This document shows, in pieces, positions 1-60,030 of a DNA stretch of 64,000 nucleotides. A model generated the notes under the pieces. It searched no databases. It had not been told where the DNA came from and saw only the letters and a program-made list of their open reading frames with translations. Origin of the DNA: an uncultured Oscillospiraceae bacterium (GTDB lineage Bacteria > Bacillota > Clostridia > Oscillospirales > Oscillospiraceae); assembly GCA_910584395.1 (NCBI GenBank), contig CAJUAS010000001.1, positions 116,887 to 180,886 of the forward strand, written 5' to 3'. Numbering within the stretch: the stretch's first letter is position 1; each line of letters begins with the position of its first letter. The position numbers were made by a program, and so were the translations under genes.

Positions 1-3000
1 AGCGGACGCGCCCGATCCGGAGTTGATGCCCCAACCCTTATTGGCGGCATCCCAGCCCAAGACCTTTTGCGGGGTGGTATAGGTGCGGAAGGCGTCGCGG
101 CCTTGTGCGTCGGTAATGGTCGTCCAGTAACGAGTATAGTCATAACGGTTGCGGCAGGGGTTCGCGACGTTGTAGTTGTCGCGGTTGACGCTGGTGGCAA
201 TACCCAGCTGACCGTACATATTCGAGCCCCAAGCCCACACCGTGCCGTCCGCCTTCAGGGCGAGGGTGTGGTTGACGCCGGAGACCACCATGGGCGTGGC
301 GATGCCGCTGGAGGGATAGACCTCCACCTGCATGACGCTCTCGGCCACGCACTGATACCGGATGTTGCCGTTCTCATCGGTTTCGATCTCGCCGCGGTAG
401 TTCCGCACGGCCTCATAGGCGCGGAACACCACGGAGGTCTCGCCGTATTCGTTGCGTCCGGCGGCGCGGATGACCCAGTCGCCGCTGGCCGCGTCCTGAT
501 TGACCACCGCAATGGTGGGATCGGTCACGGTGACGGTGACAAAGTTGCTGCTCTTGTCATCCCGGATGGTAGCCGTACCCGTCAGGATGCGCTGGGTTGT
601 GCCGTTGGTGCCGGAGTAGATGATGTAGTTGTCCGCCTTGAGCCGCAGCTGCTGGCTGTCGTTCATGCGGTAACGCCACGCATTGGCGGTAGTGGCGTAG
701 GTGTTGGACTCGGTGACGGTCACCCGCTTGTCGGTGTCGCTGACGGTTTTGGCCACCACACCGTTGATAAGCTGGGAAGCGTCGGTGTTGGCGGCGGCGC
801 TTTCCGCCTCTACGGCGGGGCTGTTGTCCCCGGCGGCGGTGGTGTCGCCGTCCTTCTGGAGGATGGCGTTGGTGACATACACCGAGCCGTCATAACGGTA
901 ACCGCTGATGACGGGAGTGCTGTTCTCCACGCGGCCCAGATTGATCGTACCCAGCTGGAGGTAACGGTTGTTGCCCCAGCCCCAGACATAGCCGTCGTAA
1001 CGGATGGTAGAGGCGTGGTTGTAGCCCAGAGAGACGTACTTCACTTGGGTCAGATTGCCGGTCTGCTCAGTGACCTTATAGCCCTGAGTGTCCACGGTGG
1101 TGTCCTTCACGTCGCCCTGAGCGATGTGCTCCGCGGTCTCACCGTCCTGAGTAAAGAGCGGGTAGGTCACGTTGTGGGCCTTGGAGTTGCCATCGCCCAG
1201 CTGACCCAGATTGCCGTCGCCCCAAGCGTACAGCTCGGCGTTGGTGAGGTAGCTCTTGCCGTCCCACTTGTCGTCTGCACCCAGCACCTTCTTAATGCGG
1301 TTGATGGCGGCGGAGGTGTTTACACCGGCCTCCACGGCCTTGACGCCGTAGAGGTGAGACTGCTTGACGATGGTGATCACGCCGTCGTCGTCCGTGGTGG
1401 TCACGGGGGCGGCATACTGCAGGGTCGGTTCGTAATAGGTTCCGCTGGTGGTGTAATCCCCCGTCAGGGACTTCTTGTCGGTGCTCAGCTTCGCCGGGCC
1501 TTGTGTGAGCTGGTAGTTGCTGTTCGAGCCCCAGCCCCAGACCTTCTGCTGGGCGGCCTCCAGCTCTTCCTCGGTGAGGCTGCTGTCGTTGATGACAATA
1601 CTCTGAATGGCCAGCATATGGCGGTGGCCCACGGCGATAGAGGACACGTTGGTGAGGTAGTTGCCGTCGGTCATGGCGTTGCCCTTGAGCACCTGCGTGG
1701 GTGCGCCGATGGGCTTTTCGTTCGTGCCGATGCCCATCTGGCCAAAGTCGTTGCGACCCCAAGTCCACACCGTGCCGTCGCCCTTCAGAGCGGCGGAGGT
1801 GTCACCGCCGGCGGAGATCATCACCACGTTGCCGATGTGGCCTTCGCCGCGGTCGCCCAGAACCTTGACAGGGGTGCTGTTGGTGTCGACCCACTTGGTG
1901 GGCAGGGTCTCGCGGCCCAACTGACCGTAGTGGTTATAGCCCCAAGCCCAGACCTCGCCGCCGGTGGTCAGGGCGAGGGTGTGGTATTCGCCGGCGGCCA
2001 CGGCCATGATGACCACGTCTTCGCCGTTCTCCTGAATGGTGACCTTCCGGGCCAGCGAGGAATAGCTCACCGCGCCGGTGTCATAGCCCAACTGGCCGAA
2101 GTTGTTGCGGCCCCAAGTCCAGACGTAGCCTTCCTTATCCAGCGCCACCATGTGATCGTAGCCGGCAGCGATCTGGCTGATCTTGTTGTTGTCCCTGTCG
2201 CCCAGATACTCCGTGGGAATGCCGTTGGCGTTGGTCGCAATGGCCACCTTCTGCGGGTTGGCCACGCTGGTGGCGGAGTAGGCGGTGGCGTGGGGATTGC
2301 TGGGATCAAGGCTGCTCTGTGCCACGGAAGTGCCGTCGCTGTTCACAGTCACGGAGGAGGGATTCGTGCCCAGATTGGTCAGAGTGGAGGTGTTCACGTT
2401 GCGCGTGCCGCCCAGATTGCCCTGACCCAGAATGCCGTAGACGTTGTCGCCCCAGACCCAGACGTTGCCCTCGGTGGTGTTCATGGCGGAGTAGTTGCGG
2501 CCCGCCACGGTCTTAGGCACGATCTGGTCGCTGGAGGGCTGGAGGTCGATATCCAGAGAGAATACGTAGTTGCCGGTGACCACCATATCGGGGATGTGCG
2601 TCCCGGTAAGGTCATAGTCACCAAACACCTGCCAAATCTTACCGTCCCCGCTGCCTGCAGCAGTACCGGGGCCGTTGTTATAGGCCGCGCCCAAGGTCAG
2701 GGTGGTACGGCCGGTGAGGTAGTCAAACGGGTCGTCGATAAAGCTCTGGCTGTAGATCTCCGCCTTGTCCGCGCCGGAGTTCAGCACGTCCACCCGGGTA
2801 ATATCCGGGTTGGACATGACAGCGGCCCATTCCTCGCCCACGTTGGTGTGGTCGTAGGGCTTCGTCTCCACGCCGCCGCTCCACTTGTTGGAGTTGATGT
2901 CATGGTCGATGGGATAGAGGGAGAAGCCGGAGTTGTAGTGAAGGTGGGTGTTCTCCTTGTAAATGACCAGATGCTCGTTCGCGCCCAAGGTGATGAAGGG

Positions 3001-6000
3001 CGGCACAACGGGGGTGACGAGCGCGCCGGCATTTGCGCCGTAGTAGGAGGTGTGACCGGTGTAGTCGCTCTTCCACGCGCGGATGGGCTTGGTGGAATCC
3101 ACGGAGCTGCCGGAATAGGGAATGGCCTCCATGTAGTCCACCATCAGCTCCAGAGACTCACGTGCGCCGGCCTGACTGGGCAGAACGAGGTAGGTGCTGA
3201 CAAGGTTAGACAACTGGCCCAAAATGGTGTCGCCGTTGGGCGTGGTGGCGTTGTTGCCCCAGCCCCAGACGTAGCCGAACATTCCGTCCAGCACGCCGTC
3301 GTTCTTGTGATCCGTGCCCGTCTTGTAGTAGAGGGCGGTGGCCATCATGTGGTACGGGCCGGCGACGATGTTGTAGACGCCCTCCAAATAGAGGTAATCG
3401 TCGTTATACTCCTCATAACCGCCCTTGCGGGTGCGGACGGGCAGGTAGCTGGCGTTAGTCGCGCCATTGCCCAACTGGCCGCGGTCGTTGATACCGAAGG
3501 CGTAGGAGTGGGACAGCTCGGTCAGAGCGTCGTTGGCATAGCGCACCGCGCGCATACCGGTATACCCGATACCCGCGCTCAGCTCCACGATGGTCTCGTG
3601 GGCGTCGGTCACAAGCTGCTCCTCAACCTCCCTGTAGACGCTGCGGCCGTTTTCGTCCTTCTTGACGGTGACGCCGTCGGCCTCCGTCTCGATGACCAGA
3701 CCGATGACCTTATTGTTGTTCGCACCCATGGCATCGTCGCTGCCGTGGAACACCAGCGTGGGTACTTTGTGGATGCCCGCTGTATTTAGGCCCATCTCGC
3801 CGTTGGCGGTGTTTGAGCCGACGCCGTAGACGTGGTTGCCCTTGGTGAGCAGCATGGTATGGTGGTCGCCCAGCGCGGCGCCGACCACATGATAGAAGAA
3901 TTCGTTGGTCTGGTAGAAGGTCTCCACCACGGGATCGTTGATCGTACCCACAGGGTAGTTCCGGCTGGAGATGATGCGGGTGGTGGTGCTCTTCGTAAGG
4001 TCGGTGTTCTCGGTGTAGCGGTCTGCACGCATGGCGGTAGGCGCGGAGATATACGCCTTGGTAGCGGTCGCGGTGTCGGTATCGCCCTGCGTGTCCGTGC
4101 CCGTCTGGCCGGAGGTGTTGAGACCCCAAGTATACACCTGACCGTTGGCGCGGATGGCCGCGGCAGTATACATTCCCGCCTCGATATCCACCACGTGGGC
4201 CAAATAGCTGTACGGGGTGTTTTCGTTCTTGTTGAAGGAGCTGTTGTAGTCCATCGGCCCGGCGGCCATACCAGCGGCCACGCGGCGCGGGGTGGACTTA
4301 TAGTCGGTCGTGCCGTCGGCAATGGCGAAGTCGCGGCCCAACTGGCCGTAGCTGTTGTCGCCCCATGCCCAGACGTAGCCTTCGTTGTCCAGCGCCATGG
4401 AGAACTTGTTCCCCGCGGCCACAGCCACGATGAACACGGGCTTCTCCGCATTGGGATAAGCCAGATTGACCTTTACAGGCTTGTTGGAGGTAGTGGTCGT
4501 GCCGTTGCCCAGCTGGCCGCGGTCGTTGAGACCCCAAGCCCACACTGCGCCGTAGCTGTCCACCGCCAAGGTGTGGTCGCCGCCGGCGGCGATGTCCACG
4601 ATGTCGTGGAGATAGGGATAGGCGTTGGCCGTGGTCACGTCCGCGCCGCAAGTCCAGCACTTCAGCGTGCCGCCGGCGGCGTCGATGGCCCGGTCGTCAT
4701 ACACCCGTCCGCAGTTGCCGCAGGTATGTGCGCCGCTCTGGGCGCCGGCCACCACCTGAACGGGGTATGCCCTGCGCTCCAGCGTGCCGCCGTCGCCCAG
4801 TTGGCCGGACGTGCCCTGACCCCAGACCCAGACTGTGCCGTCGGGGCGCAGAACCAGAGAGTGGTAGTTGCCCGCCTCGATCTTGGAGACGGTCACGCTG
4901 CCCTTGGTGGCCTTGTTGGTGTCCTTGACGTAGACAATGAACTGATCCACATAGCGGTAGTTGACCTTGGTGGTGGGATGCGTGTACTCATAGGTCAGCA
5001 CCACGGCGGTAGAGCCGAACTTGTCGGGATGGACGGCGTAGAAGACGATGTCCGTCCCCTGCCATTCATAGCGCAGCAGGCTCTTGTCCACGATATCCAC
5101 ACGCAGGGTGGTCTTGCTGACCACACTGTCGGCCTGACTCTGCGTATTACCGTACAGATACTTCATGGAAGAGCCGGGATAGAACACGTTGAAGCCGTTA
5201 TACTCCTTCAGCCGGAGGTTTCTGGTGTCCAGACGGTACGGATTGTCCTGATCCACCACATGGCGGGTGTTGATGGTGTTGGCCAGAATGGCGGAATTGC
5301 TGTTGAAGTTGGTGCCGCTGTACTCCACCACCATGCTCTCCTCGCGGATGCCGGTGCGGATGGGGGTGTCGCTGTTCTCGGCGCGGCCGTCGCCCAGCGT
5401 GCCCGACGTACCCTTGCCGAAGCTGTAAACGTAGCCGTCCTCGCCCAGAACCGCCGTGTGGTTGCGGCCCGCAGCCGCTTGGAAGGTGGTGTAGGCGAAG
5501 TTGTCGAAGTAAGTCTCATAGACCAGCCGCGTGCCGTCCTCCTGAACGGGGCGGTTATAGTCGGCCAAGATGTAACCCTCCACCTTGGCTACGCCGGGCT
5601 GGGTCTCTCCAATGCCCAACTCGTTGTTGGTGTTGTTGCCCCAGACGTACAGTTCGTTGTTCCACTTGGCCTCGGTGCCGCGGTTGAAGGTGACGGTCTT
5701 GGTCGAGCCGTCCGCCGCCTTGTAGGTGCCGGTGACCGTGGTATACACGGGGCTTTCGTCATAATAAGTGTGGGTCTTGGTGCAGGCGTTCTCCTGAAGG
5801 ATGGTATCGCCGTTTTCATCCGTGCCGGTGGAGATACAGTCATACTCATGGGCAATCTGCGGGGTCTTGAGATCGCCGATGCGGAAGACATGGTCGCCGT
5901 CGGCGTCGGTATAGGTGTAGGTGTTGGACTTCTGCGCCGTGGCGTGGGTGCCGCCGGCAGAGACCGCCACCACATTGGTCAAGCCGGAGACCAGCACGGG

Positions 6001-9000
6001 AATGGAGCTGTGCTGGTTGCCTGCCGTGCCGTTGCCAAGCTGGCCCTGCGCGTCAGAGCCCCAAGCAAACACCGTGCCGTTGCGGGCCAGAGCCACGGTG
6101 AAGTTGCTGCCCGCGGACAGGCTGCTCATGTTGGTGATACCGATGTCACCGCCATAGGTGAACTCGTCTCTCTCCGCCGTGTTCTTCACGGTGTCTGCGG
6201 TGGAGCGGGTCTCTTGGTCGCCGTTGCCCAGCTGGCCATCGGCGTTATAGCCCCAAGCCAGAATGATGCCGTCGGAACGGATCGCCAAGCCGTGGTTCGC
6301 GCCGGCGGCGATATCGGAAATGCTGGTCATGTTGTTGCCGCCCTTGTAGCCAAGGACGCGGGTGGGGGCAATACGGTTCTGCCATGTGTTGTTGCCCAAC
6401 TGGCCCTTGTCGTTGATACCCCAAGCACAGACGCTGCCGCCGTTACCGAGGGCCATAGCGAACTCGTCGCCGGCGGACACGCGCACGATGCCGCTCAGGA
6501 CGCCGCTCTCGCCGTCCAGATTGGCCACCAGCGTGGGGGTGGGCACAGCCAGCGTGCCCTTGTTGATGCCCAACTGGCCGGAGGTGTTGAGACCCCAAGC
6601 ATACACATTGCCCTTATCGGTGACCGCCATGGCGAACGCGCCGCCGGCCGCCACATAGGAGATGGTCTCGCCGGCCGGGATCTGGACACGGACGGGGGCG
6701 TTACGCACCGCGCCGTTGCCGTTGTTGTCCACAACGGTGTTGGTGGTGCGGTCCATGGCCTCGCCGGTACCCAACTGGCCGTAGTTGTTGGCGCCCCAAG
6801 CCCAGACCGTACCATCGGAGCGGAGGGCCACGGTGAAGTCGTTGCCCGCCGCCAGCATAGGCACAGCCTTCGCCCCGTCGTCCAGCACGGCCGCCAGCAG
6901 AGAGCCGGAGTACACGTCGCCGTTAGGCAGGGTGATGTTAAAGGTAATGGTGGCTCGGCCAAAGACCTCGTTGTCGGTGGGCTCCATGTTCCAAACGCCG
7001 TCCTTGGTGCGCCAGACCTTCACCACGTCGGGGTTGGAGGAGGTCATCATCACGTGGTTGCCGTAGACGTTGGAAATGTCGATATCGCTGTAGAGGTTGA
7101 AGCCCTTGTAGTTGATCTGGAGCATTGCCCCGTCCTTCCAAGGCATCTCATAGCGGTAGCCATGCTTCAAGACCACCTCAACAGGCGGCTTCATATCGGG
7201 CGTATCGGCGTTGTACTCGGCGATCTTCTTGCCCGTCTCATCATAGAGAGCGGAGCGCTGGATCTCCAAGCTCTTATAGGGCAGCGGGCCGGTACGGGTG
7301 GGATAGTAGGCGGGGTCGTCCTCATAGTCGCCCACCTGACTGTATTTGCCTTCGCCCCAGATATACTCGTAGCCTTCATGGTTGATGGCAGCGGAGTGGT
7401 TATAGCCGGCGGCGAAGCCCTGAGCCCGGGCAAAGTAACCGGCGGTGACGGTGGTATCCAGCATGATCCCCGGGTTGGTGCTGTCGGGCACCTTGTAAAG
7501 GATATTCTTCATATCCATATCAAAGATAGCTACGTTGCTGTTTTCGCCGTCAAACACCCGCTGGAGGGCGCGGTAAGTCCCGCCGAAGCCGGTGCGCTTG
7601 TTGTCCTCGGTGCGGCCCAACTGACCGATGGTGTTGTCGCCCCAAGAGTAGATGTCCCCTTCTTCGGTGTCCAGCAGGGAGAACGTGCCGCCCGCCTGAA
7701 CATGGGAGATGAACAGCGTGCCGCGGCCCTTGCCGCTGACACTCCAATAGGGCGTTCCGTCGTCCTTCGTGCCGGACATCATCCAGCCGTCCACCCACTG
7801 GCCGGCGGCATCGGTGTAGCCCACGCCCACCGGAGCGGTGCTGGTGGAGTTCAGGGTCATGGCCGTACCGTCGGGCAGGTCGCGGATGTACGCCAGCGCC
7901 TGCAGCTTGGAGACCATGATCTTCTCCTCATCAGAGAATTCGTTGCGGCGGTTGGTGGGATAGCTTCCGAAGTAGTCCACCATCAGCGCGTAGAGGTTCT
8001 CGATGGCATACGCGCCGCCGTTGATGTCCGTCTCGGCAATGGGGGCGGCCAGACCGGCGGCCACCGTCGCGGTGTCGCGGCCGAGCTGCTCGCTGGACTC
8101 GCTGCCAACGGTCAGGTTGGTGCCCCAAGTATAGACCGTGTTGCTCTTACGCAGGCCGGTGGCAACGTCGTAATCGCCGCGCAGGGCCACGGCGTGGTTC
8201 TGGCCCATATCCAGCTCCACGATCTGATTAAGCTGGGTGCCCACCTCGACCACATAGAGATCCACGTCGTTCTCATTCTTGTGGGGATCAATGGGCTTGC
8301 CGTCCGTACCCGTGACAGAATTGTCCAGCGTACCCTTGCTGGTAAAGCCGGCGAGATCGGTCTGCACGCCGTGGGCGCCCTGAATTCCACGGCCGGTGGT
8401 GTTGCCCAGAAGCTGCTTGCTGTTCGAGCCCCAAGCAAAGACCTTGCCGTCGCTGCGGAGGATGGCGGAAGCCCCCTCCACGGCGGACGCGCCGGAAGCG
8501 GAGACGGAAATGGCGTTATTGAGCCAGTAGCCCTCGCCCACGCTGCCCGCCTGACGGACGAACTGGGGCGCAAGAGACCGGGCCACGCTGTTGTTGGGAT
8601 CGCCGGCCTGTCCGCGGTAGGTATTGCCCCAAGCAAGGACGGTGCCATCCTTCAGCAGGGCGATGGAGTGGTCATAGCCTGCCGCCACATCCACCACACC
8701 GGTGAGATAATGTTCTGCGCCGAGGGTCACGCCCGCAGGCAGGTCGGCGGCGGAGGCGATGTGGGTGCGGGTCTTGTCCTCGTTGTCCACATAGTAGCCC
8801 TGCGCGCCGTCGGTGTAGTAACGGCGGTCGTCGCTGCCCATTGCATACCAATAGGGGCTGTCCCCTGCCAGCACGCGGGTGGGATACTTATAGTAGTCGG
8901 TGTTGCCCGAACCGACCTGACCATAGGAGTTATAACCCCAAGCGTACACGTTGCCGTAGGCGTCCACGGCCAAGGTGTGGCCGCCGGCGCCGGTGGTCTC

Positions 9001-12000
9001 CTGATAGCTCTGGTTGACCGACATCTTCATGATGGCGGGGTTATGATAGATGCCCGCGCCCAAGCGGCCGCGGCCTTCCACGCCAGCGACCTGCGTGGGG
9101 GTAATAATGCGTACAGAGTCGCGCTCCTTGCTGTCGTCCACCTCGGCGGGCGGCTCTGCTCCCACCAGCGTCACATTTGCTCCGGTGAAGATCCCGGTCT
9201 GGCGCAGCTGCTCCAGACGGGAGGAATCGAGGGCGTCGTTCCCCTCCTCGTCCGTTGTCCGCTCCAGCTGGATGTTCACCCGGCGCAGCGCGCTGCTCGC
9301 ATAAGGCGCATTGGTATAGGCGTCAGCCGTGAAGGAGGACGCCAGCATAGCCCCGGCAGCCGGGATGTCGGTGTTGAAATTGATGGTCTGGATCTTGCTG
9401 CCTTGGAACGCCCCCACGCGAATGGCCTTGTACCCCTCGGAGATGGTGAGGATGGTGGCGTTGCCGTCGGCAAAGCGGTTGCCCGTGCTGGACGCGTCAT
9501 AATCCACCAAGAACACCGGCACACTGGCCACGCCGCTCAGCAGAGTGAGAGGATCGCCGGTAAAGACAGAGGTGTAATCGCTCTCTGTCAGGGTGGTGGG
9601 CAGGATCAGCTCGGAAGCGGCCTTGCCTTGGGCCGTGAGGCCCGTAATGACCGCCACGCCGGGATAACGGTTGTCGTAGGCGTTGGGGTCGGAGGGATCG
9701 TTGTTGACCCGCAGGGCGTCGATCATCGCCTGATAGAACGCAATGGTGTTCTTGTGCGGCTCCAGATCGGCGCGGGCCTTCAAATGAGCGCTCTGGGCAG
9801 CATCCAAGTTGGCGCGCAGAGTCTGGAAGCGGCCCGCGTCCAGCGCACGCAGAGTGTTGGCGGTGTCCACTGCGCCGCTGAAGTCGCTGGAGCTGTCCAG
9901 AAGGGTGTCCAGCGTCTTCATTGCCGCGTCGGCGCTTCGCAACGTGTCCAGCACCGTATTGCCCACGTTCTTGGTGTTCATATCGTAGCGCACGGTGTAC
10001 TCAAACCGGGTGCGCAGTCTCATTCCGGCGGGGAACACGGGGTTGTCGCCTGTGGTGTCCACGCCGGTGATGGCAGTGTAGTCGGTGACGGAGGGATCCA
10101 CCGTCAGCTCCCCGTTCACCCCGGTGAGCGCGTCGATGCGCCCCTGAATGGCGGCGAGACTGCTGCCCAGAGTGGCCAAGTTACTCATAAGGTCGCCGAA
10201 CTCTTCCTTGGTGGGCATATCGCCCATGCTCTGAAGCTGGGTGCGGGTGAGCCGGTAAGCCGCCACCCGGGCGTCCAACTCCGCCTTCAGGCCGGTCTTA
10301 CTGTTGGAGAGCTTTTCAATCAGCTCGTCTATGGTGGGAATGCCCGCATAGGTGTTGAAGGTCGCCACGCTCTGGTCGATGATGGCCTTGGCGGCGTCAG
10401 TTTCGGTCTCCAAAGCGTCAATGGCATTGATCAGTCCGTTGCGGCTGTTCACCCAATCCGCCTGATCCAGCGCGTTCTGGGCGTTCTTCAGTGCGCTGGC
10501 GGCGGCGTTGGCAATGGACTCCAAGCTGGTGGGGTCGGTGGCATCGCCGATGGCAGCCTTGGCGTCCAGAATAGCCTGATCCATCTTGCCGGTCGCGCCG
10601 GGAATGTAGGTGTCCGCAGGATAGAACTTCCAAGTAAAGTAGCTGGCGGGGGACTTCTTCGTCTCTTCCGCCACGTCCGCGCTCTGGGTAGACAGGCCCA
10701 GATTGCCGTTGCGGTTGTCGCCCCAAGCCCAAACCGTACCGTTGCGCTTGATGGCATAAGAGGTGTTGTAGCCGGTATACACCCGCTCCACGGAGACGAT
10801 GGCGTCGCCGTCCTCGTTGGTGCCCTCGCCCACGACCGTGACCTTGAAGGAGCCCCAATAGCCGTTGACCTTGTCCACCACCACGATGGTGGCCGTGCCG
10901 TAACGGGCGTAGTGCTCCCCGGCGATCTGGCCGGTGGGGGTGATGACCACGCCCACGTTGCGCGTTTCCTTCTTGCCGTCCACGGTGACCTCTTCGGTCT
11001 TGTTGCTCACCTGAACGATGGACTCGTCGGAAGAGAAGTAGGTAAAGCGGTTGGCATAGTCGGCCACGCTGGCCACTTCCTTCTCGGCCACGGCGGTTTC
11101 GGCGTTGCGGATGGTGCGCTCCCAGTGGAGGTTATAGCCCTTGTAGGTCTCCTCCACGATGGACTTGGCGTCCACTGTCAGCACCTGACCGGCGGTCATG
11201 TGGACATCCACAGGCAGCTCGCCCATGTAGATGCCGTCGTCGCCGCGCGTCTCGCCCACCATCAGGGTGTCGGAGGTCTCAAAGAACTGCTTGCGGCCGC
11301 GGTTGTCGTTGGCGGGATTCTTGACGGCGTTGGGGTCGGTGTTGGTGGTGTCCGTCAGCGAGCCGTTGGTGATCTGGAGGAGGTTGCCCGCCTGCGCGCC
11401 CACCAGCGCGGGCTCGCCGATGGAGAGCCCGTCGGAGTGCATCGTGCCGCCGGTGGCAAGGTTGCCCGTCTGGCCGTTGGTGTTCGAGCCAACGCCGTAC
11501 ACATAGCCGTCCTCGGTGAGGAAGAAGGCGGTGTTGTTGCCGGCGGTCACGGCGGTCACATGGTCAAGGTAGTTCACATTCTCCACCGTGGCGTACGGGC
11601 CTTCGCCGCTGAGCACGCGGTTGATGTCGGGATCGGTGTTGCCGCTGCCGGCGGTGGGAACGACGTTGCGGCCCTCGGAGTGCCAGCGGCTCACGATCTT
11701 GCCGCCGCTGGTGTAGTTCCCGGCGGTGTTCGCGCCGTCGGCGCGGCCGCCGTAGAACTTGCCGCCCCAAGCGTACACGCCGGAGGTGTCCGCCGTGTCG
11801 TCCACCACCAGAGCGTACCCGGTGTTGTTACCGGCGGCGATGGCGACCACGCTGCCCGCAGTGCCCAGCTCCACCTCTACGGGGGTGGAGTGGTTTTCGT
11901 AGTAATAGTGGGGGAAGTATTCGTTGTTATGATCCTTATCGGAGCAGTTCGACCAAGTCTGACCGTAGCTGTAATTCGTGCCGCAGGGATAATCCTGATA

Positions 12001-15000
12001 GACATAGGCCTGACCCCATGTATAGATCTTGCCCTCGTGGGTCAGAGCCATCAAATGGCTGTGGCCGGCGGCCAGCTCCACCACGCCGCTGAGGCCCTTC
12101 ACCTTGGTGGGCACATAGCGGTCGAGACGGTCGGACTTGGTGGTCTTGGCGTTGCCGGAGGCCACCGTGCCGCGGCCCAGCTGGGCCATGTCGTTCTTGC
12201 CCCAGACATACACCGTTCCGTCGCTGCGCAGAGCCATGGTGTAGAAGTCACCGGCCTCAATGGCGACGATGTGGTCAAGGTACTTGTAGCCCACGTTGGA
12301 GGAGATGCCCCGCACCGCCGCCTCGCCGCGCACCACGTGGGTGGGGGTGGTGACGGTATCCCGGGCGGAGAGCTTCTCCGCTTCGCTGATCATCAGGTTA
12401 TAGAAGGTGTCCTCCCGCAGGCGGGTGAAGCTGTTGTTCCAGTTGTAATGCTGGTAGAGATCATGGGTGGAGACGGCGGAGGCGTAGTTGATACCCCAGC
12501 TCCACTTGTCGATGTTGTTGCCGTTGGCGTCCTCATAGCTGGCCGCGTCGATGCCCAGCTGGCCGAAGCCGTCGTTGCCCCAAGCCCACAGCGTGCCGTT
12601 GGAGTCCAACGCCACGGCGTGATCCTTACCGGCGGAGATGTCCACGATGATGACGTTCTCGTCCGCATCCCCGGCAGCGGGGGTGGAGGGCACATCACCG
12701 GCCATATAATCCTCGTCGAAGCTCTTGGAGAAGTCCACCTTGGTGGCGTAGCCGCCGTTGGCCACGGGCGCTGCGCCCCAAGCCCAGACGTTGCCCCACA
12801 GATCCAGAGCCAGCGTGTAGGCGTAGCCCGCAGACACCGCCACAATGTGGTGGAGGGTGTCGCCGGTGTTCTCCAGCGTGTCGCGGTCAAGCACTTCGCC
12901 GCAGGCGCAGGTATAGGTGTACGGCGCGCCCAGAATGGGCTTGCCGTCGGCGTCGGTCACGGTGTTGCCCTCGGTGTCCTTCACCGGCGTGCCGGTAAAG
13001 GCGCTGTGGGGGATCAGCTCATCGCAGTTCGGGCAATAGTAGTACGCTTCCTGCTCGCCGCGGAGAACAGGAATGGGATAGGAGAAGGAATTGTCTGTGC
13101 CGTCGCCCAGCTGGCCCATGCCGCCGTAGCCCCAAGTCCAGACCGTGCCGTCCGCCTTGAGGGAGACGGTGTGGGCATAGCCCGCGTCGATGGCGGGGGT
13201 GGCCACGTCGCGGCGCGGACGCTGCTCGTGGTGAATATCGCTGGCCTGACGGCTGACGAAGATCTTCACCAGCATGGAATAGACCGTGCCGCCGGCGGCG
13301 GTATAGCGGATCTCCACCATGGTAGAGCCCATGGTGGTCTTGCTGGGTGTAAAGACGAGGGAACCCTTGTCCGCGCTGGCCTTCAGCGTACCAATGCGGT
13401 CGTCCATTACCTTGTAAGCCAGATCGTCGGTGGTCATGCCGGTCTTAAAGAGAGCCTCAGGATCGTTGCGATCCAGCAGGTCGAAGCCGGACATATACTG
13501 CTTCACGATATCCGCCACATAAATTACGGCGGTCTGCTCATCCCGGAGACGGATGATCTCCGTACCGATGTTGTAAACCACGGCGTCGCTGCCCAGCTGG
13601 GGATCGCGCTCCACGCCATGGGTGGTGTTGGCGTCATCGCTGAACATCATCAGGGTCGCTTCCACCTCGCCCACGCGGACGGGGTAGGTGTGGGTGGCGT
13701 CCAGATTCACCTTCACGCTGTCGGGATCGTTGAAGGTGGGCAGATACCGCTTCTGGGCGTCGGAAATACGATGGGCGTGGTCGGAATCAGTATACGCGTC
13801 GGGATCGAGGGACGCGTCCTCGTAACCGGTATAGATGTAGCTGCCATCGGGCACAGCGCGGTTGGTGAGGTTGTCGCCCAGCTTCCAGTCGTTGTTCTGA
13901 CCCCAGCCCCAAACCGTGCCGTCGTCCTTGAGGGCGATGACATGGTTGTAGCCGCCTGCGGCGGAACGCAGGTTGGTAATGGCGACATTGTAATTGTCGC
14001 CGGTATAGGACACGGACACACCCGCCAGCACCAAGGTGGGCAGGATGTTCTCGCTGTCGGCGGCCTTGGCGGTATCGTCCACGGTGGTGATGCCCAATTG
14101 CCCGTACTGGTTGCGGCCCCAAGCGTACAGCTTGCCGCTCTGATCCAGCGCGTAGCTCTGGTGTTCGCCGGCAAAGACCGCCACCAGAATGATGTTGTCG
14201 CCGCCCACAGGTGCGTCATAGGTCGAGCCAAACCAATCGTGGCTGTTGGTGGTGGAGGGATCGGCCAGCACCCGAACGGGGGTGGTGGAGCTGTAATCCA
14301 CATAGTCGTGATTACCGTCGGCGGCGGTGCCGAAGTGATCCATGCTCCACGCGCCCAACTGGCCGTAGGTGTTGTCGCCCACGGTGTAGACCTCGCTGCG
14401 AACCTTGGTCTTGTCGGTGGGATGATCCACCCGCACAAGGATCATGGTGTGGTTGAGGCCCGCAGACACCATATAGGCGTTGCGGAGGTAAGGATCGGTG
14501 GAAGCGGACATCCCCGCCAGCATCAAAACGGGCATCCCGCGGTCATCCTTGGTGCTGTCGCCCAGCTGGCCGTTGTCGTTGCGGCCCCAAGCCAGAACAT
14601 AGCCGTCGCTGCGGATGGCGAAGGAGTTATAGTGGCCTGCGGCGATGGCGGTGATGGAGCCAAGGTAGTCGGTATCCGACGCGCTCTGGCCCTTCACGAC
14701 CTTCTGGGGTACATCGGAGAAGTCCGTGCCCACGCTGGTGCCGCGGCCAAGCTGATAATTGCCGTTGTCGCCCCAAGCCCAGACCTCGCCGCCGGCGTAG
14801 ACAGTCTCTGCGTTGCCGGCGGTATAGCGCACGGTCTCCGCGCCGCGGGTCAGGGCCAGCGTATGGTTGTAACCGGCGGCCACAGAGGTGAAGAAGGGCT
14901 GCTTCTCCAGCACTTCGCCCGCCTCGTCCTTAAAGACGACCTTGGTGGCGTAGTCATTCTTATGGGGAACGGTGGTGTCAATGTCCTCGGTGGGATTGCC

Positions 15001-33000: not shown

Positions 33001-36000
33001 GTTGGGGCAGTTTTTGGGGATATCGACCCAGATACCGCAGTCGTCACCCTCTTGGTTCACATACTTGTAGTAGGCCAGATAGTAGACCGTCCAGCCCTTG
33101 CTCTCGGCGTACTTCACCGCGTCCTCGCTGTAATCCATGGCGGTAAACTGCTGGCCGGGACGCACGCCGAAGCGGATGTCCGCCTCGGTATTTTCAGGCA
33201 CGCGGTTGTTGTCGTTTCGGAACTCAATGGCGCGGGTCAGGTTGCCCACGTCGTTCCAGCCATCAGCCTCATGGTCGGCCACCTGCTCATAGGTGAAGGG
33301 CTGATAGACGCCGTCGGCTTGGAACATCTTCATAAACTTCGGGCCGTTGAGACGCTCCACCTGAGCCAGCTCTTCCTCGCTGGGCACATGGATCAGGTTG
33401 GTGGTAATGGAGCTTAACCCGCCCACCACATAGACCTCCCGGTCGTTGGTGGTGCTCAGGTCGCCGTCCACGTCCTTGAGGACGATGCTGAAGTTGTCGC
33501 CCGCGGCCACAGACACCACGTTGGTGAAGGGATTGCCGTCGGCGTCCTTCACCTCCACGGGATAGGCGCGGTCAACGAACGTGCCGTCGCCCAGCTGGCC
33601 CTGTGCGTTGTCGCCCCAAGCCCAGACGCTGCCGTCCGCTTTCAATGCAATGATATGGTTCTTGCCCGCCACCAGCATGGGGGAGGTGGCGAAGCCGTCG
33701 TCCTTTTCGGGCACGACCTTCACCCGAAGCAGAAGGGTGCGGCCGGTGGTTGTCTCATAGATCTGGATGAAGGTGTCGCCGTACTTGACGTTGGCCGGGT
33801 CCCGCGGGCCAAAGGTCACGGTCGTGCCGTCGTTGCTCAGCTCCATGGTGATACTCTCGTCCAGAGAGGTGAACTCCCACTGGGCGTTCTTAATGTCCTC
33901 CACAGGCTTGTGGCTCAGGAGGTTGAAGCCGTAGTCCACCAAATAGGCCATCTTGGTCAGGTCGAACTTGGCCTCCTCCGCGCCCACCAGCGTGATCTGG
34001 GGGGTGAGGTCGTGGGGCGTGGTGTTGTGATCCGTGCCCCATGCCACCAGACTCTCATAGCTCAGGCGGCCCACCACAACGGGGTACTCGGAATTAACAT
34101 CAGTATAGTCGCCCAACTGGCCCAGCGCGTTTGAGCCGGCGGCAAACACCGTGCCGGTATCGCGAGCAAAGACGATGAAGTCGCCGCCCACGGCGGTCAC
34201 CATCACCTTTTGCATCCAGTGGTAATTATCGTCGATGACCTGGAGTTCGTGTGCAATCTCACGGGCCACAGTATTGTCGTAGTCAACAGGAGAACCGCTG
34301 GGGATCGGGCCGCGGGTCACGTTGTAGTTGCCCAACTGGCCAACACTGTTGTCGCCAAAGGCCAGAAGCTGAATGGGGTCAAAGCCGCTGCCGTTGCCCT
34401 TGACCGTCTGGTTCTCCACTTGTGCCAGCGTCGCAGCATAGCCTGCGCTCAGCTGGCGCGCACCGGCGGTCAGCGCCTCGCCGGCTGCGTTTTTCATCAC
34501 CATGGGCGTACTGAACGCCTGCGTGGTGTCGCTATTCAAACCGATCCCAAGCTGTTCTTTTTCGTTGTTGCCCCAGCCGTAGAGACCCGGGGTCACAACA
34601 AAGTCCTTGCCGCTCTGGTCGGGAGTTGTCATTGTGATGTTCAGGGCGATGGCGACAGTGTGGTTCGCACCCATGGCGATGGCCACGCCCTTGTTGAAGT
34701 TATAGTCGTTCTTATCATTGGGGTTCATGCCGGGGTTGCCGGTAAAGCTGTTTTCATTCCATGTGTTGCCCTGTCCGGCCTGAACCTTCACGGCGGAGTA
34801 GCGGTTGCGGTCGGAGCTGTCGCCCAGCTGGCCGTAGCTGTTGTCGCCGAAGGTAAAGAATGTACCGTTGGAGAAGAGCACGCCGCCGGTCTTGCCGCCC
34901 GCAGCAATGCTGACAGCCTCCTGCATATGGTTGGTCTGGCTGGGCGAACGGCCCTTGCTCACCCACTTGGCATAGCCACTGGTGGTAACGCCGCGGTCGT
35001 TGACGCCCATTTGTCCATTGCTGTTGTCGCCCCACGAGTACACGAAGCCGCTCATGGACAGGGCCATGCCGTAGCTCTCGCCGGCGGCGATGGCAATGAT
35101 ACGGTCGCGCTCCACATAGGTGTCGGTGACATAGCCGCCAAGGACGGAATCGTGATAACGGTATTCCTTGGTGACCTTTTCTTCGCCCAGCGTGCTGATG
35201 CGGCTCACGCGCATACGCACCCGCACAGGCTGATAGCCCTGATAGGCGCTGTCCGCGCCGCGGCCGAGCTGGTTGAGCTTGGTGATGCCGGTGCTGTCGT
35301 AATTGTTGCCCCAAGCCCAGACATAACCGTCAATGTCCAGCGCATAAGTAAAGTCCTTGCCGGCGGCGACCGCAGAGAAGGTCAGCGGCCCGCCGTCCAG
35401 CGCCAACTGCGCGTCGGTGTTGTCCGGACGCACAGCGCTGTACTGATAGAAGTTGGTGACCTGAACGGGGTGATCCACATAGGCGACCTTTTCCGGATCA
35501 AGGCCCAACTGGCCCTTGGAGTTGTCGCCCCACACCCACACGCGGCCGGAGGAATCCAAGGCCACGGCATGCTTCGCGCCCGCGGCCACCATGGGGGACG
35601 CGGACACGGACGCATTATGGTCATCGGCCGGTTCTGCCGGATCATAGGTTTGGCGGTGGCGCGCCCAAACGGGCAGCACCATCATATTGCTGGTCTGGGG
35701 ATCGCCCTCCACGCCCTTGGAGAACTCGTAGTCGATGTAAACGCTGGTCAGGCCCAGCTTCCCGGTGTTGCGCACCTTCACCTTGGTGCCGCCGGCGTTC
35801 TCAGCGGCAAAGATGGAGGGATCGGTGACCCCCACATCCACCAGATTGAGCTTGTCGGCAATGGAGGTGTTCTCGCCGTCGGAGAGGAGGTTAAAGCCGG
35901 TGCGGTGGCTGTACAGGATATCAGCCATATCCAGCAGCAGGTAATCCCCCTCATCCATCATCACGATGTTGGGGTTCTCCTCGCCCACCGGGCGCAGTTG

Positions 36001-39000
36001 GTTATAGGTGTGGAGCAGGGCGTCATTCTCGTCGTAGTGCTCATAGTGGTCCAAAATCAAGCTCTTGGACTCGCCGTCGCCCGCCTGAACGGCCCGGAAG
36101 CTGTCGTCCCGCGTCCCGTTGCCCAACTGGCCGCGGTCGTTGCGGCCCCAGTTCCATACATAGCCGTCATAGCGGACAGCCGCCATGTGCTTGCCGCCCA
36201 CGGCGATGGCAATGGCGCGGGTGAAGAACTTGTAATCCTGATTGGAATTGGCGCTCTCGCCCTGCGCGACCTGAACGGCGTGGCCCACAAAAGCGGTGCG
36301 CGCGCCCTCCAGATCGTCCTCGTCCCGTTCGTCCAGACCCAGCTGGCCTTCCATATTAGAGCCCCAAGCGTACACAACGCCGCCCGCTTCGCCGAGCATT
36401 GTGCCGTCGCGGACAATGGCTTCGCTGGACTGCCCGCCGGCAGCCACAGTCAGCACGTTTTGAAGATCGGCGCCGGAGGCGGTCTTGACCCGGACAGCCC
36501 CAGCCTCACGCCGCTTGACGATGGATTCGCCCACCAGATCATAGGCGTCCACGCCCTCAATGCCGGGCTGGCCTCCCACGCCGGGCACTTCGGTCACCAG
36601 ATCCTTGATGTCATAGGTCACATGGTCCACCGCGGCGTTGCCGATCTGGCCATAGGTATTTTCGCCGAAGGCCGCGACCGTCCCGTCGGACAACAGAGCC
36701 AGAGAGTGGTTGCCGCCGGCGGAAATGCTCATCACATTGACCAGATAGCCGCGCATCTCGCCGGCCGCCTGATTTGCGGGATCACCGTTCACAGCACCCA
36801 CCTTCACCCGCACCGGCACACGGTAGGTAAAGGTCGCACCCAGAGTGGAATTGTCGCTGCGGACCAAGGTGCTGTCAACGCCCACACCCAACTGGCCGTA
36901 GGAGTTGTCACCCCAGCCAAAGAGAGAACCGTCGCTGCGAAGGGCCAGCACATGGCCGTCGCCGGTGGAAATGGACATGATCTCACTCAGGTAGTAGCCC
37001 TTGCTGGCGGCTTCGCCCTCCATGACCTGAACAGGCTTCCAAGTGAACTCGTTGAAGGTCGGCTTGCTCTCCATCACCTTGTTGCCGCTCTCGTCGTCAA
37101 GGGATGCACCGTATTCGCCGCCGGTGGTCACCAGCGTGCCGTTCTTCTCGCGCTCCAAATACTGCTCCAGAGCGGTCTCATAGTCCTCATAGCTCCACTT
37201 CACACCGCTGTAAGTCGGCCGCGCCAGCACCCAGTCCGTACGGAAGGTCGGCTCGCCGTCCTTTTTGTCGCCCAGAGGCACAAAGTGGTCGTACTTTTCC
37301 CCGTAAGAGGGGTTGTCAATGGCCATCCGCTCATAGGCGGACTGGAGATAGCTGACCGCCGCCTCATAGAGCTGGAGGGCAAGGACAAACTCGTCCATGG
37401 TGGCTACCTCGTTGCCGCGGTAGTCGCCCAAGGGGCGGATCAGCTTACTGTTATCGCTGTCATCCTCGTAGTAGTCCTTCATGTTCGCCGGATCGCGCAG
37501 CGCTTTTTCCTGCAGTTCCACGAACTCCGTCATATCATAAAGGTACTTGGCATACAGGTAGTAGCTGTCCAGATAATAGGGGTCAGCCTCCGGACGCTCG
37601 TTGTGTCCGGTATACATCACTTCGCGGTTGAAGCGGCTGCCCATCCCGCTCAAGCCCAGCTTGGCGCACAGCTCGTCATAGATGCTGGGGTAGGCAGTGT
37701 AATCGCTGGTGCGGTAGGTCAGCTCGGTCAGGTGCTGCCCACGGACGCTGTCGTAGCCGAGCACGTCCCCTACATAGCCCACACCAAGCTGGCCCTTATC
37801 GTTGCGACCCCAGCTCCAGACCGTGTTGCGCTCGGTACGCACGACGGTAAAGCCGTCCCCGGCAGCGATCTCAACGATCTTGCCGAGCACGCTGCTGATG
37901 TCCGCTTCCACAGCGGAGAAGCTGCTATAGCCGATCACTTCGCCTTCATCGCCGGTGAGAGCAAAATCGGCGGGATCAAGGGCAAACTGCCCGAAGCTAT
38001 TGTCGCCCCAAACATACACCGTGCCCTCGCGGGTCAATGCGGCGGCGTGCCGCCGCCCGGCGGCCACCGCCACCACATGGCGGATCATGGGCGCAAGACC
38101 GCTTTCCGCGTCGGTGACCGTGCGCACCGCCATCGGCGCGTCAGAGTATGTCTCCACTTGGTTGTTGATGCCAAGCTGGCCATAGGTATTGTCGCCCCAA
38201 GTCCACACTGTGCCGTCCGCCTTCAGCGCGACGGAGAAGTTCTCGCCCAGAGCGATCATAGGCGTGGACTTATAGGCGTACTCCTGCTCCATGTGCTCGC
38301 CCGAAGCGTCCTCCACATTGAGGACGTGCACGACGATCATCGCAGAGCGGTGGGTCAGGGTGTTATAGATCCGCACGGTGGCCACGCCGCTCTGCTTCCC
38401 GGCGATAAGGGTATAACCCCTATGATCCACCACGGCGGGGTTGGAGGAGGTGATGACCAGCGGAGCGTTCGCCCACATATCCTCATACTGGGGCACTTCG
38501 TTGCCCTCTTCGTCCTCGGTCACACCCACCAGCTCATAGCGTTCGAGGTTGATCTCGGTGATGTCGTTGCCCAGCTCGTCCTTCCCTACCACGATCCGCT
38601 CGGCAGGGATTTCGATATAGGGCTGAACCGTGCCGTCCTCCGCAGTGGTGACGTTGCGGTAATATTTCTCTCTCCCCTGCGTGTAGACCAGACGGTAATC
38701 GGGAATATAACGCTCGCTCGTCCCCACGATATCCACGGTATCGTCGGTAACCAGCTCCAGATAGTTGCCCAATGTCAAGTCAGACAGCTTTACATCCCTG
38801 CCCGACCAGTTGGGAAGATCGCGCCCGGGTACAATGACCTCGGCGTCCAACACGCCGCCGGAGGGAAGAACCACGCTGTCGCCGCCCGTCTCCTCCATCA
38901 GCTCCGCGCCCGCCTCAAAGGTGGGACGCTGCATGGTGAACACCACGTTGTAGCCGGTCAGAAGGGCATCGTCCACCGCCGTCAGCTCATCCAGCGAACT

Positions 39001-42000
39001 GAGGGTGGCGTCCGAATAGCTGCCGCCGCCGGTGATCACGCTCTCCCCCTTGCCCACCACGCGGATGGTGAGGCTGGTGGCAGTGGCCAGATCCCAAGGT
39101 TTGTTGTCTGCATCGTCAATATTTTCGCTGATGGTGGCGTCCGTGCTAAAGGTCACGGGTTTCCCAAGCACAATGCCGCTCTTGTCGATCAGCATATTGT
39201 TGTCAGCATCCTCAAAGTTCTGCTGAATTCTCACAGAGAACTCGTCGGCGTGGCTGCCGATGATCTGCACGGAAATGGTGTTGTTCACGGGCAGCACCAG
39301 TTTGCCTTCCGCCTTGCCGGCAGCGCCCTTCTTCGCCGCCGCGTCAATGGTTTGGAGCACTGTGACGTTAAAGGCGGGCGACTGCTCGTCGGGCATGGCC
39401 ACGATCAGGCCGTTGCTGGTCTTGCCGTTATAAATGTCCGCGTCGGTATCATTGATCGAGCCGTTGAAGCCGCTGATGATCTGAACGTGGCCTTGGGTAA
39501 GGGTGTTGTTCATGGTCGTGCCGTCGTCGTTGGCCACCATCAGGGTGTACTGGATCTCCCGCGTCGGCACGGACAGCGGCGTCACAGCGGGATCCACCGC
39601 CCCTTGAAGGATGTCCTTCACATAGCCGCGGTAGGTCAGGTTAAACTGCGTGCCCATCACGGGGAGCTTCACCCCGTTGGGATAGCGCAGATAGACCATA
39701 TAGTCGTCTCTGGGGATGCCGCCCCGCGCCGTTCCGCCCAGCTCGCTGGTGTCGAACAGACCGTCGCCGCGGTGGGTGAGCTTATAGCTGGCCCAGACAC
39801 GCTGCGGTGCGCCCACCGCAGTTGTGCGGCCGCGCTGGCTTTCCAGATACAACTCATACCCCTGCGCGGTGGCGTCCGCCCAGTTCACATTGTTCTTGGT
39901 GAGGCGAACCGCCATGGGGATCATGTAGTTTTCGTCCCCGGCGACATTGCCGTCCATGGTCACCACCAAGTCGGTCTCACCCACCGCCTTCATGATCTGC
40001 AGGGGGGTCGTCCCGTCGGTGGTGGCGTACTGGTACTCGATCTTCTCCAGACCGATATTCGCCGTGCCGCCGCTGGAATTGCGCCAAGTGCTGCGGACGC
40101 GAGACCCCACCACGCCGCTGGTGAGGGCGGTGGTGGCGGTAGTGAAGATCAAGGGTGCATCCGCCATGACCTTATCGCCGTTAATGAGCTTCCAAGTGAC
40201 GTTGCCGGCGCTGCCGCCAGTATAAATGCTGTAGCGATCCTCGCCGTCCACCTGCGTGCGCTGTGCATAGTAGACGGAAAGCTCCGCCATGGCAACGCCG
40301 TTTACCGGCACGATGGCTACGTTCAAAGTGAAGTAGTCCAAGGTGTCGGTTTTGTTGCCATTCTTAATGGTGATGGTTTTCGGCCCTTCAAAGGCCAGCT
40401 CCGGGTGGGTCAGCAGGCCGCTGTCGGCATCAAACGCGCCGTCCACATACTCCCACACCTTATATGTGCCCTCGGGCACGTCCTTGGCGGTGTAGGTGTT
40501 CTTGCCCGCCTGCTTTTCCAGTACCACAGTCTTATAGCTGCTCTTGAGGAACAGCTTGCGGTCGCTGTCTGTCCAGCTGGCGTGATCCAGATCCACCCGC
40601 AGGGTCACGTCGAAGAGGCGCGGATGCTCCACGGTACACTGCACATCCACCTGATCGCCCAGAGACTCCACCGTGAAGTAGCCGTCCACCGTGGCGGCCT
40701 CGGCCTGTGTCAGTTCCTCCTTAAAGGAAGTACCGTCGGTATAGCCGCCGGTGTGCTCCACGCCGTTGTCATCCGTCCACTTGCCGTCGTAGACGACCCA
40801 GCGGTTCTTGCGCTCAGTGGTATAGACCGTGGCGGCGGGATTCACCGCCCACTCGTAGTTATAGTCGGAGACATAGCCGCCGCGGCCGGTCACATGGAGC
40901 ACCAGCTTGCCGCCGCCCCAGACGCTGTCACCGGAATGGATGACAATGGTCTCTCCGCCCACGGTGTATTCGCCCGTCAGAGTAGAGGTGGCGCTGCTGT
41001 CGCCGCCCGTTTCCGCCAGACCGAAGGTAATGGTGAAGAAATCGATCACAGCAGGGGCCTTTGTAAAGTCAATCCCCTTGCCAACCTTCACTTCCGCGCC
41101 CGTATCCTTCCAGACCGCGCCGTCCTTGTGCTCTTTCGACCAGATGTTGTAGCTGCCGCCGATCACATCCGCCGCATCGTAGTGCGTATAATAAGGAATC
41201 GCCACGCCGTCGGAATTTACATAGCCCGCGCCCTCCACCGTCCGGGTCAGCGGATACTCCCGCTTCATGGGGGTGTTCTGCACCAGCTTATAGTCGCAGT
41301 CATTATACGCCGCGTCGGGTACGCGATTCCAAAGGACGCCGTTCTGATGGGTCTCCATCCGCACAGAGAATGTGCGGTTGCCGCCGTAGTTCACTACGCC
41401 GGAAACAACAGGGATATAAGCGTCGTCAAAGCCGGACTGGCCCGCGCTGCTGCGGTCTACCAGAGACATTTCGCCCAACTGGCCGGACTCGTTCTTGCCC
41501 CACGCGAACACCTCGCCCCGATCCGTCAGGGCGACGGTGTGCTTGCCGCCGGCTGCCAGCGAGGTCACTACGCCGTCCACGTTTCCGGGCTTGGTCACCA
41601 CTTGATAGTTCTCGGCGACGGTCTGGGATTGATAATAGCCGTTGGAGTCTGTCGCGGGGATCGCGATCTGACCGTCGGTGTTTGTGCCGAAGGTATAAAT
41701 GGTACTCTCGATGATCGGGCCGAGAATGGTGGGATCGGGCAGTACCGCGCGTTTCCCCCGGAGGATGGCGGTATGGTACTGGCCTGCGGCCACACCCACC
41801 GCGTCAGTAATGTCGACGCCGTTGTCATCCACCAAGGCGGTGGCATACTGGACAAAGCCGAGGCCGTTCTGATCCGCAGAGGCGGCACGGCCGAGCTGGC
41901 CGTAGCGGTAGTCGCCGGCCGCCATAATGCGTCCGCCCGTGCCGCGGGTGGGGTCGCCCTCGGTAAGCACGGCGGTGTGATAAAAGCCCGCGCCGATCTG

Positions 42001-57268: not shown

Positions 57269-60030
<2,762 letters not shown>

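Follow-up and report, generated by a model that had tools for sequence, protein, structure and literature searches.

The 64,000-nucleotide stretch that we analysed (the window; positions 116,887 to 180,886 of contig CAJUAS010000001.1, assembly GCA_910584395.1, from an uncultured Oscillospiraceae bacterium) is occupied over positions 1-47499 of its minus strand by the 5' part of a single giant gene, which is real and under purifying selection throughout. We favour the reading that this selectively maintained gene of 120.5 kb probably encodes a giant fibre, on the cell or around it, for multivalent binding or scaffolding, with a separate ligand for each propeller. The frame that opens at the ATG at 47497-47499 reaches base 1 without a stop in 15,833 codons, where ~451 stops are predicted from base composition; the two remaining minus frames hold 434 and 393 over the same stretch. 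The GC content at codon positions 1, 2 and 3 is 0.59, 0.45 and 0.83, the pattern found in the adjoining real genes. The original prediction of one minus-strand gene, open from this ATG to base 1, thus stands on both its codon count and its coding signature. It had also described the long plus-strand open reading frames (ORFs) as antisense shadows of up to 5,533 aa, which is the length of the longest one listed (3832..20433). The plus-strand frame opposite the gene contains 8 stops in the window, and in the orthologues the antisense frame has 2-5 stops each and the sense frame none. We rejected the plus-strand ORFs as genes, given that their GC peaks at codon position 1, that every orthologue interrupts them and that they have no family matches.

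Look-ups of the GDSL and DUF4358 proteins next to the gene located the locus on 16-25 contigs; these are from NCBI metagenome-assembled genomes (MAGs), from ENA and from Logan assemblies and represent different samples, and the loci compared are 99.98-100% identical to the window over the overlap. Two contigs contain the whole gene by the coordinates of their calls, at 40,167 aa on CARXPQ010000001.1 (176.6 kb; assembly GCA_949097325.1) and at 40,165 aa on CARJKZ010000002.1 (183.9 kb), and both match the window at 100% identity wherever the fetched sequence overlaps it. With a full gene of 40,167 aa (120.5 kb), the window holds the first 40% alone. This full length comes from database gene calls and published tables; the sequence read directly comprises the 15,833 codons of the window and 3,335 more in an orthologue (locus L011). 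The protein had been placed above Ebh-class surface proteins in length, and its size was in fact underestimated: we take it to be four times as long as Ebh.

The GTDB species representatives were scanned for relatives, as the original prediction had suggested for related genomes, and four further Oscillospiraceae/Clostridia MAGs carry one: MGBC108936 ('uncultured Oscillospiraceae') at 85% amino-acid identity and three others at 59%, 57% and 43%. At each of the four loci the whole ~22 kb fetched is a single open frame of more than 7,300 codons. L011, the closest orthologue, is colinear with window positions 7-12211 and continues for 10 kb beyond the left edge, where its 3,335 codons add 30 further RCC1 blades and no transmembrane segment. 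Between the window and L011 the ratio of nonsynonymous to synonymous substitution rates (dN/dS, Nei-Gojobori) is 0.14 over 4,022 codons; by class it is 0.115 in blade cores, 0.15 in loops, 0.17 in linkers and 0.15 in the last of three orphan inserts (insert 3, Table 1).

These data bear directly on whether the locus could be an assembly artefact, a chimeric or collapsed in-frame join of shorter RCC1 paralogues, or else a decaying pseudogene. All named sources are metagenome assemblies, several contigs break within the gene, and the orthologue on one Logan contig (L021) is split into 654 + 476 aa. Set against this, many independent samples and assemblers yielded the same sequence, the frame is open and colinear in four further species, eight MAGs give near-identical lengths (PMC13104272), and zero stops where ~450 are expected, with a dN/dS of 0.14, do not describe a gene in decay. 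Tandem Repeats Finder returned nothing meaningful on the window, and the longest DNA self-matches in it are 60-113 bp at 77-87% identity, so that repeat-driven misassembly is very unlikely and no repeat above 113 bp or 87% identity is present to drive a collapse. We consider this explanation effectively refuted.

The visible protein is dominated by RCC1-like propellers. In 15 of 16 tiles of 1000 aa, Pfam RCC1 (PF00415), RCC1_2 (PF13540) and WD40_RLD (PF25390) match with E-values down to 1e-93, with top scores of 226, 253 and 313 bits against gathering cut-offs of 21.7, 22 and 150, and no other Pfam family is significant in these tiles. An iterated hidden Markov model (HMM) of the blade finds 121-123 blades, which group into 18 complete propellers and a 19th that starts at base ~700, in agreement with the chain of about 18 propellers that had been described. 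Each unit of the array contains one or two seven-bladed propellers (7 or 14 blades, one double unit scoring 11), and the complete units open with linkers that start at aa 700, 1416, 2964, 3812, 4469, 6240, 6978, 8528, 9217, 9839, 10610, 11303, 12096, 13401 and 14058. A propeller of the giant takes ~500 aa, with longer loops, compared with ~370-400 aa in eukaryotic RCC1-like domains (RLDs).

The linkers escaped standard searches. BLASTP among the inter-propeller stretches revealed no mutual similarity, and an HMM built on a single Big_2-like segment recovered 2 copies; with ten linkers as the seed, 16 copies of a ~130-aa domain were found, each of which ends 7-36 aa before a first blade. Of the three Pfam families that had been proposed as a check, RCC1 and RCC1_2 are thus significant and Big_2 (PF02368) is not, with a best score of 11.7 bits (E 0.26; cut-off 22.8), and the linkers are found by the custom HMM only. 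Since the Pfam match is below cut-off, whereas the AlphaFold2 (AF2) model is a beta-sandwich and the sequence has a Big_2-like pattern by eye, the likeness of the linkers to Big_2 appears to be one of fold only. That model was made for the unit at aa 13401-14057 from an alignment of 12 paralogous units; it has a pTM of 0.77 and consists of an all-beta N-terminal domain followed by a propeller. Foldseek places it closest to UVR8 (E 1e-31; TM-score 0.83-0.88, normalized to the target; 18-25% identity), followed by RPGR, HERC2, RCC1 and BLIP-II (E 5e-15), so the structure prediction that had been called for module by module returned a propeller for this unit; a sequence search of the PDB also retrieves UVR8, at E 7e-49. 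Roughly 30% of the visible residues are not RCC1: they make up the N-terminal head, the 16 linkers, a stalk-like insert, helical-looking inserts and four-cysteine knuckles.

The units of the array are not interchangeable copies. Among themselves, the best identity of paralogous units is 24-34% (median 29%), and yet in all four other species each unit is matched best by the orthologue at its own position, with the order colinear (identities of 85-91%, 48-59% and 38-53%). The array must therefore be older than the split of these lineages, with each propeller kept individually since. This is where the giant departs from classical adhesins, whose repeats are homogenised. It shares with Ebh, SdrD and PitA/SpaC/RrgA a signal peptide and a very long beads-on-a-string design, and perhaps Ig/CnaB-like stalk segments; however, the Ebh/MSCRAMM type is built of near-identical Ig or FIVAR-GA repeats, whereas the giant has units at 24-34% identity, propellers as the main unit and no LPXTG in the visible part, and the tandem, highly similar repeats of sortase-anchored adhesins have no counterpart in it at the paralogue level (median 29%) or at the DNA level.

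From these observations, we hypothesize that each propeller has its own ligand, because each is conserved across species and yet only ~29% identical to its chain neighbours; the same position-specific conservation argues that the propellers are non-interchangeable. In characterised examples, RCC1-like propellers act as binding platforms, and we find no enzymatic Pfam or NCBIfam family in the 15,833 aa; for these two reasons a binding or scaffolding fibre seems the likeliest product. A bolder form of the proposal, which we advance tentatively and think possible though improbable, is that the giant is not a repetitive adhesin but a fixed-order set of ~45-50 receptor modules without redundancy, which each have a ligand of their own and occupy positions that predate the lineage split, an extracellular 'barcode' scaffold to which 6.6% of a ~1.8-Mb genome is given.

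The N-terminus has the layout of a Sec signal peptide: a K/K/R n-region, a 20-residue hydrophobic core and AMA/AG (the slash marks the predicted cleavage site). The Shine-Dalgarno-like GGGGTGAGGG at 47502-47511 and this signal peptide agree with the original prediction. In a hydropathy scan, the signal peptide is the sole convincing transmembrane-like segment in aa 1-15,833; a borderline second hydrophobic peak lies at ~aa 1001, within the first propeller region. The mature visible part has a mass of 1.69 MDa and a pI of 4.6, which scales up to ~4.3 MDa for the whole protein. Shorter bacterial RCC1 proteins usually have extracellular domain partners (TIG, fn3, SLH, T9SS, InlB B-repeat, Big_2). 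The signal peptide, the lack of another transmembrane segment in the visible part, the acidity, the Ig- and pilin-like domains and the partners of these shorter proteins together suggest Sec export and an extracellular site. As had been stated for the visible part, it has no anchor module: no LPXTG-like motif occurs in aa 1-15,833, and neither SLH (PF00395) nor another anchor family gives a Pfam match in any tile or segment.

These features also bear on a membrane-tethered coat, held by an N-terminal signal-anchor or a C-terminal wall anchor, in which the giant would form a structural layer of the envelope or link cells to one another, and would not be an adhesin with specific ligands. A 20-residue hydrophobic core is long for a cleaved signal peptide, although an AXA-type cleavage site (AMA/AG) follows it. 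The Firmicutes RCC1 relatives P0091 and P0124 bear SLH domains, and a DUF4358 gene whose product has weak lipoprotein-signal-like matches, and might be a partner, lies directly upstream in two species; on the other hand, neither SLH nor LPXTG nor wall-binding repeats occur in the visible part, the class is described in the literature as having no transmembrane anchors, and the position-specific conservation of such diverged propellers exceeds what a purely structural spacer needs. We judge this explanation to be rather unlikely.

Less probable again, in our view, is a precursor polyprotein, in which the exported chain would be cut into many propeller proteins and so yield ~50 binding proteins in fixed stoichiometry. 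Individually conserved, non-redundant modules would suit separate products, and acidic low-complexity spacers are present in the N-terminal region. For giant bacterial proteins of other kinds, cleavage after translation has been proposed (bioRxiv 10.1101/2023.11.21.568195; PMC13104272), but that proposal is based on the protease domains of Omnitrophota giants, and no protease family is found in the visible 15,833 aa. Moreover, the linkers appear to be folded Ig-like domains that lead into a first blade 7-36 aa on, not exposed cleavage spacers, and we noticed no recurrent cleavage motif, though no systematic search for one was made.

A host-directed effector or toxin, on the model of the Legionella RCC1-repeat effectors that manipulate the Ran GTPase or of the Tc toxins' RCC1-like propeller, is very improbable. 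The best solved relatives of the propellers are indeed eukaryotic RLDs (UVR8, HERC2, RCC1, RPGR), and such roles are mentioned in the literature for bacterial RCC1 proteins, but the likeness is one of fold and repeat consensus only (18-25% identity), there is no plausible way for a 4.3-MDa chain to enter a host cell, and no translocation, Rhs or toxin domains were found in the visible part. The Legionella proteins (LegG1/PieG, PpgA) are likewise bacterial and carry RCC1 repeats, but they are small, type IV-secreted and act within host cells, and we saw no sign of translocation in the giant. With housekeeping genes as the genomic context in addition, we rejected a role of the Legionella type.

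For the fibre that we favour, the following course may be envisaged. The gene would be transcribed from its own conserved promoter, and the ~4.3-MDa product, the translation of which would take tens of minutes by a rough estimate, would be exported through Sec by its N-terminal signal peptide. Outside the cell it would be an acidic (pI ~4.6), non-enzymatic beads-on-a-string chain and probably an extended fibre: an orphan head, acidic spacers and then, in fixed order, modules of an Ig-like linker and a seven-bladed RCC1-like propeller, 18 in the window and ~45-50 in the whole protein by extrapolation, broken by putative CnaB/pilin-like stalk segments and other orphan inserts. At ~5 nm per propeller and ~4 nm per Ig domain, ~46 modules would measure roughly 0.4 µm if extended. 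Adhesin, matrix component and coat are all possible roles for the product.

Several points weigh against this proposal. The case for it is built from sequence and models, and no result points to a ligand. The full length is taken from gene calls that databases give for short-read MAGs, and the C-terminal 24,334 residues, beyond the part read, may hold a protease, an enzymatic domain or an anchor. An uncleaved signal-anchor, rather than a cleaved signal peptide, could explain the 20-residue hydrophobic core, and the model of the stalk-like insert (insert 1, Table 1) is only moderately confident (pLDDT 59), with fold matches of low global TM-score.

Table 1. Features of the giant gene and of its upstream region, in window coordinates.
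Feature	Position	Strand	Basis
Giant gene, visible 5' part (15,833 codons, aa 1-15,833)	1..47499	-	Stop-free frame; GC at third codon position 0.83; dN/dS 0.14 vs L011
Predicted signal peptide, aa 1-34 (MDANISKLKLLGTR-IIAGVLTASMLLSTAATAMA/AG)	47398..47499	-	Hydropathy scan; conserved in orthologue fragments P0001, P0007
Orphan N-terminal domain, aa ~75-215	46855..47277	-	Conserved in P0001, P0007
Acidic low-complexity spacers (aa 300-535, 616-665) around small domain (aa 540-615)	45505..46602	-	Sequence reading and composition
Array of 15 complete units, each opening with ~130-aa Ig-like linker	790..45402	-	Linker HMM, blade HMM, Pfam, AF2, Foldseek
Orphan insert 1, aa 2027-2963, ~seven predicted tandem beta-sandwich domains	38611..41421	-	AF2 model all-beta; Foldseek
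~260-aa insertion, aa 3246-3506, between blades 3 and 4 of propeller 3	36982..37764	-	Blade map, sequence
Orphan insert 2, aa 4694-5093, with cysteine cluster	32221..33420	-	Blade map, sequence
Orphan insert 3, aa 12278-12838; first ~330 aa Ala/Leu-rich, helical-looking	8986..10668	-	Blade map, sequence
16th linker (aa 15571-15705) and first blade of 19th propeller, cut by window edge	1..789	-	Linker and blade HMMs; L011 continues
Shine-Dalgarno-like GGGGTGAGGG, ends 2 nt upstream of ATG	47502..47511	-	Sequence
Promoter-like TTGCAT-17 nt-CATAAT, TG at -15 (extended -10; TTGCAT-17-TGcCATAAT)	47632..47660	-	Conserved leader block with L021
Second, upstream promoter-like TTGAAA-16 nt-TAAAAT	47760..47787	-	Conserved in L021
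Terminator-like hairpin and T-run, end of DUF4358 gene	47799..47816	-	Sequence
DUF4358 protein, 154 aa, weak lipoprotein-signal-like matches	47883..48347	-	Upstream neighbour; protein look-up, family search

The head and the inserts are largely without relatives. The orphan N-terminal domain has none in Pfam, NCBIfam or PDB sequence searches, and a query with aa 1-800 matched a single protein among 5.8 billion. In the homologue searches with aa 1-800 and with a module profile, every match listed is shorter than 1,500 aa. Insert 1 has no Pfam (E<=5) or NCBIfam match; its 12 relatives among 1.84 billion representative proteins are all contig-cut fragments of orthologous giants. The AF2 model (pLDDT 59) is an all-beta string of ~seven beta-sandwiches, for which Foldseek returns PitA, B. 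anthracis TIE, SpaC, SdrD and UafA at E-values of 3e-9 to ~1e-3, with low global TM-scores; for PitA, TIE, SpaC and SdrD the E-values are 3e-9 to 2e-4 and these TM-scores only 0.09-0.16. As modelled, the insert resembles a Gram-positive pilus or adhesin stalk. The insertion in propeller 3 has no Pfam match but is conserved in orthologue fragments (motif YYLDSYY.YA.YL … GNEM), and its helical look is by eye alone. Inserts 2 and 3 have no relative in Pfam (E<=5), NCBIfam or PDB sequence searches. The start of insert 3 (8986-~9980, aa 12278-~12600) is rich in Ala, Leu, Asp and Thr and has the look of a helical-bundle repeat, FIVAR/GA-like (as in Ebh) by eye, with no Pfam or PDB match.

Cysteine is rare in the visible protein (37 of 15,833 residues). 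We observed CxxC…CxxC knuckles in propeller loops at aa 14260-14284 (window 4648-4722), 7398-7436, 11489-11533 and 4985-5059, and all four cysteines of the first are kept in the four orthologues, down to 48% identity. Judged from their sequence, these knuckles look like zinc ribbons in a protein that is predicted to be extracellular.

The 384-bp leader of the giant contains both promoter-like elements of Table 1, in blocks conserved with L021, the protein of which is 56% identical; the element nearer the gene implies a leader transcript of ~125 nt. As the terminator-like hairpin closes the DUF4358 gene, the giant would form a separate transcription unit. The DUF4358 gene adjoins the giant gene in L021 as well (463-927), with a gap of ~390 bp in both species, and its product might be a functional partner of the giant. 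In L021, a Logan contig from SRR17182836, the two ORFs of the split orthologue lie at 1321-4724, and the first has an out-of-frame-looking tail; the split reflects either a frameshift introduced by assembly or sequencing or a true disruption in that strain.

Further upstream, the window encodes SecA, a Cu-oxidase_4 protein, an SBP_bac_5 protein, PurL, ThrE, a HAD hydrolase and a GDSL-like protein, followed by the DUF4358 protein, all on the strand of the giant. The whole window has no Rfam match. The SecA gene (57268-60072, minus strand), canonical and full-length, lies 10 kb upstream of the giant and is probably just the housekeeping secA; SecA-like domains are, according to the literature, embedded in other classes of giant bacterial proteins.

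On the plus strand, the GC skew flips sign at ~32 kb, inside the giant ORF (window ~30,000-33,000), where the cumulative skew has its maximum and the coding strand does not change. Fourfold-degenerate sites retain the shift, with a coding-strand skew of about -0.13 to -0.31 on the upstream side and -0.30 to -0.43 on the downstream side. An altered mutational strand bias would fit, for example a replication terminus within the giant gene, and most of the gene would then be head-on to replication; a gradient of codon usage is an alternative account.

The giant is already known as an object. RCC1-type giant genes of Oscillospiraceae were reported in the preprint of West-Roberts et al. 2023 (bioRxiv 10.1101/2023.11.21.568195), and the Microbiome Datahub paper (Microbiome 2026; PMC13104272, Additional file 13) lists eight Oscillospiraceae proteins of 40,144-42,508 aa from the genus MGBC124762. 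Among these is a 40,167-aa protein of MGBC124762 sp910584395, from a 1,824,862-bp MAG of mouse faeces, and a 120.5-kb gene amounts to 6.6% of that genome. The source genus of the window is probably GTDB MGBC124762, and we infer that the species is MGBC124762 sp910584395 because the protein lengths are equal and the origin is the mouse gut, rather than by comparing sequences. The original prediction knew of no characterised protein with this architecture: its function is indeed uncharacterised, and we found no functional study of RCC1-type giants in the literature searched, but the class had already been reported (bioRxiv 10.1101/2023.11.21.568195; PMC13104272).

The published class comprises RCC1-dominated proteins of one family that are predicted to be extracellular and have no transmembrane anchor, and our giant is probably the same protein. 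Its gene calls of 40,167 and 40,165 aa exceed the 30,000 aa that define the class; the closest genome record (MGBC108936) and the mouse-faeces origin of the 40,167-aa protein place it among Oscillospiraceae of the mammalian gut; and its visible part, with 121-123 blades in 18 propellers, consists mainly of RCC1 repeats. Beyond the signal peptide, no convincing transmembrane anchor occurs in aa 1-15,833 or in the next 3,335 aa of L011, and the last ~21,000 residues lie outside this range. In one respect our results contradict the published picture, which is of one repeating domain throughout the length: ~30% of the visible part is not RCC1, and the modules are diverged and positionally conserved. 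What we add to the known object is the linker and the supermodule, the non-RCC1 content, the stalk-like insert, the conserved promoter, and the selection and positional orthology.

Outside this class, the nearest comparisons are of fold. The eukaryotic RLDs (UVR8, RCC1, HERC2 RLDs, RPGR) have the same seven-bladed propeller and belong to the same Pfam families, but they are single, intracellular and act as guanine-nucleotide exchange factor, photoreceptor or adaptor, whereas the giant has at least 18 concatenated in a chain that is predicted to be secreted; we do not expect its propellers to catalyse guanine-nucleotide exchange on Ran. BLIP-II, the Streptomyces beta-lactamase inhibitor protein II and one of the fold matches to the module model, is a secreted bacterial RCC1-like seven-bladed propeller that is purely a tight binder; it is, however, a single ~270-aa domain with a known ligand and has no sequence-level match to the giant. 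We also observed an RCC1 ORF of at least 3,017 codons, only 24% identical to the query and running off the contig end, in an unrelated 'uncultured Clostridium sp.' MAG (L019, 9791-18841); among Clostridia, RCC1 proteins of large size may have a wider distribution.

At ~4.3 MDa, the giant exceeds the length usually quoted for titin. It ranks among the largest predicted proteins outside Omnitrophota and takes up ~6.6% of the small genome of a gut commensal, and orthologues of similar size exist in lineages from the mouse, human and rabbit gut. The analysis provides a usable anatomy for such proteins: a supermodule, an orphan head and stalk, a conserved promoter, purifying selection in every domain class and individually conserved propellers. 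That the propellers are conserved one by one, and not homogenised, argues for many distinct binding specificities, and the ~650-aa units are concrete, expressible pieces with which ligands could be screened.

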